Below are positions 725-60,567 of a DNA stretch of 64,000 nt, piece by piece. Below the pieces are notes generated by a model that was given only the letters and a program-made list of their open reading frames with translations, had not been told where the DNA came from and made no database searches. The stretch lies in NCBI GenBank assembly GCA_003022535.1, contig PXTT01000039.1:948-64947 (forward strand), written 5' to 3'. Both the position numbers and the translations under genes were made by a program. Every line of letters begins with the position of its first letter. The stretch's first letter is position 1. This DNA comes from Bacteroidetes bacterium QS_9_68_14. Lineage in GTDB: Bacteria > Bacteroidota > Rhodothermia > Rhodothermales > Salinibacteraceae.

Positions 725-1401
725 TCACAAAACGCCGCGCTCGGCCAGCGACGTGTAGCCGCTGCCGGCGATGATGAGGTGGTCGTGCACGGGGATGCCC
801 ATCAGCTCGCCCGCCTCGGCGAGCTGGCGCGTGATCTTTTCGTCCTCACGGCTGGGCTCGGGGTTGCCGCTGGGGTGGTTGTGCAGGCAGATCACGGCGG
901 CGGCATTTTCGAGGACGGCCTTCTGGAAGACCGCGCGCGGCTCGACGATGCTGGCCGCCAGGCCGCCCTCGCTGACGGTGTAGTCGCCCTCGACGACGTT
1001 GGCGGTGTTGAGCAGGACGATTTTGAAGACCTCCTGCTTCAGGCCGCGCATCTGCGGGCCGTAGGCGGCGGCCACGTCCTCCGGGCCGGTGACCTGCACG
1101 CGCGCGTCCTCGCCGCCGGCGCGGTGCTGCGCCTCCACGCGCCGGCCGATCTCGAAGGCCGCCAGCAGCTTCGCCGCCTTCGCTGGCCCGACGCCCGCCA
1201 CGCGCGTCAGCCCCCCCTCCTCGCGCCGCGCCAGGCCCGAGAGCCCGCCAACAGCTCGGCGTCGGAGAGCACCTGCGGGCCGTGCTGGGACAGCTTCTCG
1301 CGCGGGCGGTCCTCGGCGTCCCAGGCGTGGATGGGCGCGTGGTAGGCAATGGCCGGCTCCTCGGAGCCGCTGTCGTCAGTGGGCGAGTCGTCGGCAGACA
1401 T
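725..1401 (-). pseudogene. radC: RadC-family JAMM protein with a broken reading frame (frame switch near 1246)
   Basis: The N-terminal block (MSADD...RPREKLSQHGPQVLSDAELLA) is in the frame of ORF 1207..1572. The HhH and JAMM part (GVGPAKAAKLL...HNHPSGNPEPSREDEKIT) is in the frame of ORF 725..1201. Total length is 677 nt, not a multiple of 3. About 20 residues normally found between ELLA and GxLxGL are absent. Confidence 0.6.
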
Positions 1402-1575
1402 GGGGGGCGACGGGCGAAAGCGGCGGAAGGACGGTTCACCCCACCACGACACCGCGCGGGCTGCCGGCGTAACGTCTGCGAGACGGTCTTTTCGTGAAGA
1501 CGCTGATCGGCGGTCGTTCAGTCCGGAATCGGCTTTTCGTGTGCCAGAGGGTCCCGCCAACCGTCCCTCCAATCG

Positions 1576-2706
1576 CTACGCGGGTACCAATTCGTTGAGG
1601 AGGTGCGCGTTAGTGGGGCTGTTGCGCACGTGCTTCAGCAGGGCCTGCATCGCCTCGACGGGCGGGCGTGAGTTGAGCGCGCGAAAGAGCTGGTGGTGCT
1701 TCTTGAGACCGTCACCGATGAGACGCTCCTCGTTGCGCGTGCCGCTGTCGCGCACGTTGATGGCCGGGTAGATGCGCTTGTTGGCCAGCTCGCGGTCCAG
1801 GACGATCTCGGAGTTGCCCGTGCCCTTGAACTCCTCGAAGATCACGTCGTCCATCTTCGAGCCCGTCTCGATCAGGGCCGTAGCGACGATCGTCAGGCTG
1901 CCGCCGCCCTCGATGTTGCGCGCAGAGCCGAAGATCTTGCGCGGCTGCTGGAGGGCCTTCGCGTCGAGCCCGCCGCTGAGGGTGCGCCCGCTTCCGCCCA
2001 GAAAGAGGTTGAACGTGCGCCCCAGGCGCGTAATGGAGTCGAGCAAGAGCACCACGTCGCGGCCCATTTCCACGCGGCGCTTGGCGTATTCGAGCGCCAT
2101 CGTCGAGACGCGCACGTGGTTGTCCTCGCCCCGGTCGTTCGAGGAGGCGAAGACGCGCGCCTCGGTGGAGCGGCGAAAGTCGGTCACTTCCTCGGGCCGT
2201 TCGTCGACCAGGAGCGCCACGAGGTCCACCTCGTCGTGGTTCTGGGTGACGCCGGCGGCGATCTTTTTGAGCAGGACCGTCTTGCCGGCACGCGGCGGCG
2301 AGACGATCAGTGCGCGTTGCCCCTTGCCCAGCGGGGCCACGAGGTCTACGACGCGCATGTCCACGTCATCGGGGCCGGTGATGAGGTTGAGCTTGTCCTC
2401 GGGGTAGATGATGTCGCCGCCGTCGAAGTCCTCCAGCTCGGCCCATTCCTGCGGCTCCATGCCCATGACTTTGTAGATCCAGTCCACCTGCATCCCGTCC
2501 TTGCGCCCGGGCTTCAGGGAGCTTTCGATCTCGACCCCGTCCCGCAGGTTGAACTTGCGGATGTGCGGAGGCGGCATGAAGGGGTCTTCATCCGTCTTGG
2601 GGAGGTCAGGCTGGAGCTGGCGCATGAAGCCGAACTTCTTGTCGCCGATCAGCTCCAGCATTCCGCGAAACGGGTCGTCCTGTCGTGACGAGTCGTTCTG
2701 TGACAT
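1576..2706 (-). CDS. rho: Transcription termination factor Rho (376 aa, N-terminally short)
   Basis: OB-fold/CSD-like region ([15 protein letters not shown]), Walker A ([10 protein letters not shown]) and the conserved C-terminal ATPase blocks ([33 protein letters not shown]) are present. ATG at 2704-2706 is preceded by a pyrimidine-rich, G-poor leader, with an in-frame TAG five codons upstream. Confidence 0.9.
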
Positions 2707-3304
2707 GAAAAAGCAGGGGCGGGGCTAGGTGAGAGAGAACGTCCTCCGGGAAGAAAAGCGCCCGCACCCGCGCAGACGGCGCGCTGGCGGTGGAGCGTCG
2801 CAAAGAAGCGGTAGGGAACGGCGCAGGAGAAGGCGCGCCACGAGGCACCAGACGGGCGCCCCGGTTGCAAAAACGAAAGCGTATGGAGTCAATCGCCTCG
2901 GGAGCGAACTTCGCCGGGGCGGGAGACGAACGGATACTGCAGCACTCTGCGCCGGGAAAAGCCAGGCCGCGCGTTGCCGTGGACGACGCTGACGGGCAGG
3001 AGCAGCAACACGCGGGGATCTGCCAGAGCGCCCCCGGCCCTTCAAACGGCCGTGAAGCGGAAATGCCGTGGAGCAACGCGGCGGCGTGCGGTCGATAACC
3101 CTCCGCACAGGACACAATCCACCGTGCTCTCTTGCAGAGCCTGCCCGTAGCGTTTGGGCGAGTGGCAATCACACTTCACAGCCAGCAACGCCCCATCACG
3201 GCGATGGTTTCGATAAGATCGAGCACGGGTGATTTCGCGGGGTGGGAGGCGCAGAGCACTCTGAGATCGGGGGACGCCTTCAATCTCTCGGGCTGGATCG
3301 TCGG

Positions 3305-3514
3305 CTACGCTCGCTCGTCCGGGCTCGGTCGGTGCAGGCCAAGGAGCGACAGGAGCGACGCCGCCTGCCGCTTGCGCTTGCGGTACGTCTCCCTGCTCAC
3401 GAAGAGCGCCGCCACGCCCAGGCCCGCCAGCAGCGCACCGGCGAGAGCGGGCATGAGGTAGATCACCAGCCCCGCGACGAGCAGGGCCCAGGCAGGCTTG
3501 CGCGAGAACGGCAT
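3305..3514 (-). CDS. Small hydrophobic (2-TM) protein, unknown function
   Basis: 69-aa ORF with two hydrophobic helices and a basic tail. It is preceded by a C-rich, G-poor leader containing a duplicated CCCCTGACGC motif, like other genuine starts in this window. Confidence 0.4.
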   Translation of the reverse strand: MPFSRKPAWALLVAGLVIYLMPALAGALLAGLGVAALFVSRETYRKRKRQAASLLSLLGLHRPSPDERA

Positions 3515-3671
3515 GGCGTCAGGGGGGCTGGAGGAGCGTCAGGGGTGGGAGCGATACTTGCCTCCCCTGTAATTCTCGTGCCGCGGGGCACGTTCCCGCT
3601 CGGCTTGCACGTTCGCCTGCGCGGGACGCATCTTGCGCGTAGCGCATTCCTCCACCTCTCCGCTCGCCCCC

Positions 3672-59071: not shown

Positions 59072-59107
59072 CACGCTGCCTTCGCAGCAGACGGATGGCT
59101 GGAAAGA

Positions 59108-59160
59108 GGCCGGCCCGCCCCGTTGCCGCCGTGCGCACGAGGCAGGCCGGCTTTTTCTTC
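59108..59160 (+). terminator. Probable terminator after the TPR gene
   Basis: GCCGGCC ... GGCCGGC stem followed by TTTTTCTTC. Confidence 0.4.
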
Positions 59161-59298
59161 GTGAGGCGTGATGGCCGTGAGGCGTGACGGCGCCGGATAG
59201 ACACATCCGTCCCAGGGGGCGGCCGGCCGCTCTCGTCCGGGGTTGGCGTCAGCGGCCGCAGGCCAGCAGCCTCACGCAATGCGCATCCGCGCGCCCCC

Positions 59299-59328
59299 TT
59301 GTAGTTGCTACCGTCGCGGGCGTACGTT
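59299..59328 (+). promoter_or_regulatory. Possible eno promoter (TTGTAG -N18- TACGTT)
   Basis: Hexamers lie 50-80 nt upstream of ATG 59379 and resemble the element at 53571. Confidence 0.25.
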
Positions 59329-59378
59329 ATTCACCCGCTTCGGCCACGCTTCCTCTGCCATTCGCTACCGCCTCGCTC

Positions 59379-60567
59379 ATGCCCGCCGCCGTCGAATCCG
59401 TTGCTGCGCGCGAGATCCTCGACAGCCGCGGCTTCCCAACCGTCGAAGTAGATGTCGTCACTGAGGCGGGCGTGCTGGGACGCGCGGCGGTCCCCAGCGG
59501 CGCCTCGACGGGCGAGCACGAGGCCGTCGAGCTGCGTCGACCACGCGCTCATCGCCCTTGACGACACTGACGACAAAAGCGGCCTCGGCGCCAACGCGCT
59601 CCTGGGCGTCTCGCTGGCGGCGGCGAAAGCTGGAGCCGCCACGCAGGGCGTGCCGCTCTACCGCTACCTCGGCGGCGCTCGGGCCCGCGCCATGCCCGTG
59701 CCGCTGATGAACATCCTCAACGGCGGGACGCACGCCAGCAATAGCGTGGACATGCAGGAGTTCATGGTCGTGCCCGCTGGCGCGCCGAGCTTCCGCGAGG
59801 CGCTGCGGATGGGGGCGGAGGTCTTCCACGCGCTCGAAGACGTGCTCGCGGGGCGTGGCCAGTCCACCGCCGTCGGCGACGAGGGCGGCTTCGCGCCGGA
59901 CCTGCGCTCCAACGACGAGGCCATCGAGGGCGTCCTGGAGGCCATCGGGCAGGCAGGATACGCGCCCGGCCGCGACGCCTTCGTGGCGCTCGACCCCGCT
60001 GCCGCCGAGATGTACGAGCCCAGCGAGGCGGGCGGCGACGGCGCGTACCATTTTTGGAAGAGCGATCCGGGCAACCCGCGTTCCTCGGCAGAGATGGTCG
60101 ATTTCTGGGTCGACTGGGTGCGCCAGTATCCCATCCTCTCGCTCGAGGACGCCCTCGACGAGGACGACTGGGCCGGCTGGCAAACGCTCACCGAAGAAGT
60201 GGGCGGCCAGACGCAGCTCGTGGGCGACGATCTCTTCGTCACCGATACCGAGCGCCTGCGCCGCGGCATCAAAGAGGGCGCCGGCAATGCGATTCTCGTC
60301 AAGCCCAACCAGATCGGCACGCTCACCGAGACGCTCGAGGCGGTCGCCTTAGCGCGCGAAAGCGGCTTCGGCGCGATTATCAGCCATCGCAGCGGGGAGA
60401 CGGAGGACACGACCATTGCCGACTTGGCGGTGGCCTGCGGGACCGGCCAGATCAAAACCGGCTCGGCCTCGCGCTCCGACCGTGTGGCCAAGTACAACCA
60501 GCTCTTGCGCATCGAGGAGCAGCTCGGCGGGGCAGCCACGTACCCTGGCGCCGACGCGTTCTTGTAG
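59379..60567 (+). pseudogene. eno: Enolase interrupted by an internal deletion and frameshift
   Basis: [53 protein letters not shown] runs in one frame and hits a stop at 59559-59561. From ~59536 the +1 frame continues [28 protein letters not shown]... to a normal enolase C-terminus. About 40-45 residues of the conserved DGDxxRYxGKGV region are missing. Confidence 0.8.

Follow-up and report, generated by a model that had tools for sequence, protein, structure and literature searches.

Several conserved genes appear broken or shortened in the window, by which we mean the whole stretch of 64,000 nucleotides analysed here, part of contig PXTT01000039.1 of the metagenome-assembled genome (MAG) Bacteroidetes bacterium QS_9_68_14. 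This cluster of broken genes is most likely not a real biological feature, a remnant of ppc being the only genuine pseudogene in it. The lesions in radC, rnhB, pcm, and eno and at the start of the aldo/keto reductase (AKR) gene are very probably collapsed scaffold joins and not gene decay. An earlier sequence-only reading of the window had left three explanations side by side: assembly errors that delete segments of 60–190 nt, genuine deletion and duplication, and a sequence that is not a faithful natural assembly. The first is supported for radC, rnhB, pcm, eno, and the AKR start. Of the second there remain only the ppc relic and the insertion of a short-chain dehydrogenase (SDR) gene with its AKR duplication.

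Origin and Assembly of the Window

Ten proteins encoded in the window are exact matches of GenBank entries PSQ99492 to PSQ99537 (locus tags BRD48_...), all from one 72,849-bp scaffold. The scaffold belongs to the MAG QS_9_68_14, which represents a Salinibacteraceae relative and was recovered from Atacama salt crust. In the source study, 100-base paired reads were obtained on a HiSeq2000 from 600–1000-bp libraries prepared with 13 PCR cycles, and the scaffolds were built with IDBA_UD; the bin is listed in Table S1 with 1.76 Mb, 68.2% GC, 14.11x coverage, and 76 contigs (Finstad et al., 2017; PMC5532433). The window itself has a GC content of 70%, with a strong third-position GC bias in the coding regions, and not a single N is found in its 64 kb. 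It is a natural, public, uncurated MAG scaffold of low coverage, faithfully copied. The QS_9 reads are those of BioProject PRJNA351262; the junctions were judged here from sequence comparison.

The same strain is contained in a second assembly (ENA ERZ27230160; MEGAHIT, k = 119). Of this assembly, the contigs L172 (3.4 kb), L175 (4.3 kb), and L180 (5.1 kb) correspond to window positions 40903–44307 (99.97% identity), 59659–64000 (100%), and 54455–59533 (99.98%), respectively, and positions 46–1737 of L181 (1.7 kb) to window positions 9601–11292 (100%). None of these four same-strain contigs crosses any of the junctions described below.

The AKR Locus

The AKR gene (8793–9600, minus strand) has lost its start codon and leader at 9600|9601, a lesion that has to be added to those listed by the sequence-only reading. 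Missing are 101 nt, which in the related contig L177 (94–97% identical) occupy positions 1638–1738 and comprise the AKR start codon and the leader between AKR and the adjoining histidine kinase (HK) gene. The AKR protein has 272 aa in relatives vs. 262 aa as annotated in GenBank. No base is shared at the junction 9600|9601 that could be taken for microhomology.

It had been noticed before that a fragment of the AKR gene is duplicated, and this is indeed so: the copies c1 (9444–9600) and c2 (11136–11292) are 157 nt each and differ at 4 positions. Both copies end at the same base, and the last difference lies exactly 100 nt from this shared end (99 nt follow). A de Bruijn contig with a copy-specific single-nucleotide polymorphism (SNP) ends k−1 bases past the SNP, and the spacing from the SNP to the end in c1 and c2 therefore indicates k = 100 for the MAG. 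The default maximum k of IDBA-UD is 100, which is also the largest k possible with 100-nt reads. Contig L181, assembled with k = 119, ends 20 nt further on, as k = 119 would give. Since the spacing fits k, the shared end of the AKR duplication is a contig end and not a biological boundary.

The stretch from 9601 to 11292 (plus strand) is an assembly unit that carries the gene for a PAS HK (9732–11012), a direct repeat R1 (11109–11148), and AKR copy c2. At its left end L181 reaches 45 nt beyond 9601 into the 101 nt missing from the window (L177 1694–1738), which means that the same strain contains part of the "deleted" stretch. At the right end L181 has 20 further nt, which belong to the AKR start codon and leader, whereas the window after 11292 reads "GGAGGCGG...". 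The join at 11292|11293 is thus contradicted by L181. The junction from R1 into AKR copy c2, however, is reproduced in L181 at 100% identity, so that the AKR 5′ end is truly duplicated.

The segment that follows (11293–12405, minus strand) contains the SDR gene (11431–12300), ends in the second repeat R2 (12366–12405), and is not present in L177. Its part from 11293 to 12365 is bracketed by the 40-nt direct repeats R1 and R2. The SDR segment is a natural insertion or duplication and represents real structural variation. As a whole (11109–12405), the insert between HK and GH113 is ~1.2 kb long and opens with the AKR 5′ copy and its start codon.

The Enolase Gene

In eno (59379–60567, plus strand) the NCBIfam profile is matched over positions 2–50 in one frame and over positions 85–422 in another, the frame changing at the junction 59536|59537. 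Alignments with L174 (98% nucleotide identity), L081 (94%), and L082 (81%) agree that exactly 113 nt are missing (gene nt 159–271), which begin with CGACGAGAACGCGAGCCGCTACGCC.... L174 is an ENA contig of a sister strain with an intact enolase of 433 aa, and L081 is a JGI contig. In the part of eno that remains, the pN/pS ratio is 0.15 vs. L174 and 0.09 vs. L081; this part is under strong purifying selection. At the eno junction, too, a search for microhomology revealed no shared base.

Contig L180 of the same strain stops at 59533, 3 nt before the join, and L175 begins at 59659, 122 nt after it. The reads of the L180 data set are at least 119 nt long and hence are not the original 100-nt reads of the MAG. 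A spacing of SNPs relative to the sister strain was considered as the cause of the L180 end at 59533 and does not fit. The contig may end there because the 5′ part of eno holds a polymorphic tract or suffers from a systematic drop in coverage; a true deletion allele that coexists with an intact one is a less likely cause of this contig end.

radC, rnhB, and pcm

The statement of the sequence-only reading that radC, rnhB, and eno keep an N-terminal and a C-terminal block, lack the middle, and change frame is confirmed by alignment (~88, ~191, and 113 nt missing, respectively). In radC (725–1401, minus strand) the N block ends at 1246 ("...SDAELLA") and the C block begins at 1243 ("LSGLARR..."). 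At this junction (~1243–1246), where the frame changes, ~88 nt are missing (30 codons, "LIIGSGTHTSDGPVSAVELGRALTRTFGSG"). The window gene has a Pfam RadC JAB domain and a truncated UPF0758_N domain, and relatives align on either side of the junction. RadC of a sister strain (P0294) is intact with 259 aa; it is 97.7% identical over the C part and has 30 additional residues between the two blocks. The earlier reading had suggested looking for intact paralogues. A second, intact RadC (P0300) of 251 aa, only 75% identical to the window copy, is annotated in the same MAG on a 5,908-bp contig. It is close to RadC P0296 of MAG QS_8_68_28, which suggests that P0300 is either a paralogue or stems from a scaffold mis-binned from a co-occurring relative.

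In rnhB (3672–4113, plus strand) the frame changes at ~3755, where ~191 nt are missing. Pfam RNase_HII matches the gene only over profile positions 85–197. When the RNase HII of L001 is used as query in tblastn, residues 31–47 are found at 3705–3755 in frame 1 and residues 112–222 at 3754–4098 in frame 2: the N block "...ARVAGADE" ends at 3755 and is followed by "NILRAALEAM" in the next frame. The gap takes out 64 codons, whose residues are present in relatives and include the catalytic motif DEAGRG. It should be noted that the relatives compared are only 57–67% identical. A search for closer ones with a concatenated radC plus rnhB query yielded RadC matches only, and a metagenome scan with Rho for closer relatives of the radC-rho-rnhB region gave a best match of 81% amino acid identity.

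The pcm gene (27977–28608, plus strand) had been taken to begin well inside the usual protein. It is damaged, as proposed, and not simply short at the N-terminus. The start codon and seven codons remain at 27977–27997 in another frame (ATG CCC TCC GGT TCG TCT AGC, MPSGSSS), and ~79 nt (codons 8–33) are missing at the junction (~27997–28000). The NCBIfam match begins at profile position 27, and the relatives P0292 (236 aa) and P0293, which are at least 90% identical, have residues 8–33. The pcm protein as deposited in GenBank is already shortened to 202 aa. The lesion is of the same class as those in eno, radC, and rnhB.

The ppc Relic

The ppc locus (16325–16620, plus strand) is different. It had been described as two end blocks lacking the middle of the gene; actually it is an internal relic of ~290 nt, corresponding to residues ~545–640 of the 883 of Escherichia coli PEPC. 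Contig L177 (92–93% nucleotide identity) carries a full-length ppc right after lhgO (L177 7547–9859, at least 771 codons before the contig ends). Relative to this gene the relic has lost 18 nt (encoding GGTVGRGG), 2 nt at ~16515, the 5′ 2.1 kb, and everything 3′ of ~16620. Direct repeats of CGGCGG flank the 18-nt loss, and deletion between direct repeats is the usual footprint of natural slippage.

Every junction of the ppc relic is found again at positions 2830–3130 of L176, which is from a sister strain (97% identical) and stems from another sample and another assembler; in L176 the relic has a few additional substitutions of its own. Because all junctions are common to L176, the relic is real and not an artefact. 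The loss of ppc is fixed in this species, and the remnant is a genuine old pseudogene.

Proposed Formation of the Joins

The five lesions in radC, rnhB, AKR, pcm, and eno are of a single kind: in each, 79–191 nt are cleanly missing, and the same genes contain no nonsense mutations or small frameshifts. Simple 1-nt frameshifts, as known from long-read errors, were considered and are ruled out, the alignments showing that whole segments are missing. For four of the five (eno, radC, pcm, and the AKR leader) the missing piece is present in sister strains or other relatives at 90–98% identity, and for rnhB in relatives at 57–67%. The same strain itself has 45 of the 101 nt lost at 9600|9601 and the 20 nt past 11292. 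At three joins (eno, 9600|9601, and 11292|11293) the junction is at the end of an independent same-strain contig. No other indels of 30 nt or more were found in the ~24 kb of the window that are covered by close relatives. Sharing of the junctions by relatives, which the sequence-only reading had envisaged, is observed for ppc (in L176), whereas eno, radC, pcm, and the AKR leader are intact in relatives.

These observations are best explained by a scaffold put together from separate contigs joined at six points, namely at ~1245, ~3755, 9600|9601, 11292|11293, ~27998, and 59536|59537. At all of these except 11292|11293 the 79–191 nt between the contigs would have been left out. The assembler would have failed on short stretches, at the AKR locus owing to the repeat that the SDR insertion or duplication had created and elsewhere probably owing to a coverage trough or to strain variation. 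Read pairs would have linked the flanking contigs, which were then abutted without Ns, either because the gap was estimated to be zero or below or because Ns were stripped later. Each such join would mimic a clean deletion in a well-conserved gene, with a shift of frame in the four coding cases. That radC, rnhB, and pcm share this cause with eno and AKR is inferred by analogy. With 14.1x coverage, 100-nt reads, and a required overlap of 40–50 nt, the Lander–Waterman calculation predicts ~2–8 breaks per 64 kb, which is the order observed.

Several points weigh against collapsed joins. Scaffold gaps in IDBA-UD output are, according to the literature, normally marked by Ns, of which the window is free. 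The artefact call for radC, rnhB, and pcm is based on analogy and on intact near relatives, in the case of rnhB only on the relatives of 57–67% identity. The end of L180 3 nt short of the eno junction is also compatible with a real deletion that coexists with an intact allele.

Alternative Explanations

Real recent deletions of 79–191 nt in radC, rnhB, pcm, eno, and the AKR leader, as a result of decay, relaxed selection, or redundancy of paralogues, are improbable. In their favour, the lesions stand in the deposited sequence, the ppc locus proves that genes are truly lost in this species, the bin with its 1.76 Mb is small, and a second RadC is annotated in the same MAG (75% identical). Also, an independent contig ends within 3 nt of the eno junction; a fixed deletion, however, predicts that an independent assembly runs through the junction, and the contigs stop instead. 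The lesions are of one type and one size class, with neither nonsense mutations nor 1–2-nt frameshifts, and eno with its pN/pS of 0.09–0.15 does not look like a decaying gene. Moreover, eno and radC are intact in sister strains at 96–98% identity, and the same strain has part of the "deleted" AKR leader. Microhomology, on which the earlier reading had based its version of genuine deletion, is absent from eno and AKR, the two putative artefact junctions where it could be examined. In addition, a free-living heterotroph is unlikely to lose its sole visible enolase.

There is equally little reason to expect that deleted and intact alleles coexist in the population and that the assembler followed or joined the deleted path. 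Such a mixture would account for the fact that the graph breaks at or beside junctions in two assemblies, and with it the left contig common to both alleles would stop at 59536 for any k. The left end is found at 59533, however, and the right shared contig, which should start at 59537, starts at 59659 (L175). Five independent polymorphic deletions in 64 kb would be required, and the spacing of k = 100 accounts for the AKR ends without any deletion.

Somewhat less probable still are genuine deletions without microhomology that could be end-joining scars of double-strand breaks caused by desiccation and ultraviolet radiation in the hyperarid salt crust. If this were true, the strain would have freshly inactivated housekeeping genes including that of enolase, possibly beside intact alleles.

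A synthetic, generated, or intentionally edited window would be one form of the third option of the sequence-only reading, to which one could be led by several odd lesions close together in a scaffold without Ns and by many NCBIfam scores under the cut-offs. It is hardly conceivable and can be dropped. Ten proteins are exactly those of GenBank entries from a single MAG contig, independently assembled ENA contigs agree with the window at 99.97–100% over 3.4, 4.3, 5.1, and 1.7 kb, and the synteny with Salinibacteraceae genomes is kept. As deposited, AKR (262 aa) and pcm (202 aa) are already truncated, i.e., the lesions are in the deposited record.

Short Rho and GT5-Only Protein

The rho gene (1576–2706, minus strand) had also been listed as damaged and has to be removed from that list. 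It is an intact short form of 376 aa that corresponds to residues 44–410 of E. coli Rho. Like its relatives, which have 370–376 aa on many contigs from Salinibacteraceae, it lacks the N-terminal helix bundle (E. coli residues 1–43), and in L003 and L006 the stop-to-stop open reading frame (ORF) has only 375–376 codons, with the upstream stop present. The protein passes the canonical NF006886 with 433 bits (cut-off 315) and fails TIGR00767. With the members of NF041509 ("paralog_Rho2") it has in common the length of ~370 aa, the missing N-terminal helix bundle, and the retained RNA-binding and ATPase parts; unlike them, it scores far below the cut-off of this short-form family (366 vs. 628 bits) and above the canonical one. 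This Rho is the lineage's short orthologue, conserved in the Salinibacteraceae, and not a member of the NF041509 paralogue family. A nearly identical Rho (P0133) was of no help, its gene being located in a different neighbourhood.

Another gene that could be mistaken for broken is glgA-like (53798–54573, plus strand), which is matched by the NCBIfam glgA profile only over positions 2–178. It was ruled out as a further broken gene because the same short gene is present in L082, where the counterpart encodes 249 aa with PF08323 only. The gene is intact and conserved at ~250 aa; its product has the GT5 domain (starch synthase catalytic N-terminal) and no GT1 C-terminal half. Both the short Rho and the GT5-only protein are typical of the lineage.

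Other Features of the Window

The genes are arranged in the order purF′, radC, rho, rnhB, truA, a LacI-type regulator, topoisomerase IB, and AKR; then PAS HK, SDR, GH113, PGA_cap, lhgO, the ppc fragment, and crcB; in the middle sigma-70, OlsH-like, folP, cdaA, and pcm, later followed by birA, coaX, yaaA, and transfer-messenger RNA (tmRNA); and in the last part the gene of a 1248-aa repeat protein, that of the GT5 protein, and further on BamG-like, TPR, eno, ftsB/divIC, a ROK kinase, and LptD-like. The neighbourhood radC-rho-...-rnhB-x-truA is common to Salinivenus, Salinibacter, and other Salinibacteraceae (67–81% identity of Rho). When the unannotated ORFs in the window were compared with Pfam and NCBIfam, no further truncated domains came to light.

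The topoisomerase (7599–8681, minus strand), named DNA topoisomerase I in GenBank, is of type IB, with Top1B_N_bact and Topoisom_I domains. The tmRNA gene at 46293–46677 (plus strand) is intact (Rfam, 145 bits, full length), encodes the tag peptide ADDYSYAMAA, and sits within a stretch of ~1.7 kb without a clear coding signal. Two ORFs on opposite strands, of 651 aa (plus) and 536 aa (minus), overlap at 28710–30665, where the GC3 frame signal alternates; neither matches Pfam or NCBIfam. The 1248-aa protein (49008–52754, plus strand) has long repeats of 12–33 nt that are rich in Q, K, and M ("KQMQ..."), has no family match, and has a homologue of 1237 aa in L082; its gene causes a local AT skew of +0.4.

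The short duplications in leaders that had been reported are found in several leaders and are 11–26 nt long. About ten perfect or nearly perfect tandem duplications of this size are intergenic, e.g., at 6478, 8674, 11408, 27944, 30380, 52765, and 59160. The one at 59160–59191 is present in L180, i.e., in the independent assembly of the same strain, and not in the sister strain contig L174, while L081 has a different leader duplication that is not in the window. These duplications are ordinary polymorphic slippage events.

Significance

There is no biological finding in the cluster of broken genes; its value is as a caution on public MAGs. In this window of an uncurated GenBank MAG of 14x coverage, collapsed joins occur silently at a rate of about one per 10 kb, and each makes a conserved gene look like a pseudogene or its product like a shortened protein, AKR and pcm having been deposited as normal proteins. 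Counts of pseudogenes, searches for odd gene structures, and metabolic reconstructions ("no enolase, no RNase HII") would absorb such artefacts. Collapsed joins can be flagged without reads if, as here, the k-mer spacing is tested and an independent assembly is compared.

Comparison with Known Systems

In MAGs assembled with IDBA-UD, errors of local scaffolding and assembly are reported to be prominent and to spoil the gene calls of public databases (Chen et al., 2020, Genome Res; PMC7111523). Such assembly errors are the target of ra2.py (PMC5220378). The window resembles the short-read MAG errors described there in the assembler and the family of pipelines, in the position of the errors at contig joins, in contig ends that follow the largest k, and in the incomplete or frame-shifted genes that result in public records; as there, the consensus is probably unsupported by reads. 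The published cases are an unsupported consensus, Ns despite overlap, and wrong repeat numbers, whereas at the joins of the window there are no Ns and 79–191 nt are simply missing.

With the pseudogenes of decaying genomes, e.g., of Mycobacterium leprae or of recently host-restricted symbionts, the window has in common the disruption of several housekeeping genes amid intact neighbours. Genome decay is characterized by a mixture of nonsense mutations, small frameshifts, insertions of insertion sequence elements, and deletions, by a higher dN/dS, and by lesions common to close relatives. None of these marks is shown by radC, pcm, or eno; for rnhB there is no close relative to compare. Only ppc fits the pattern of decay.

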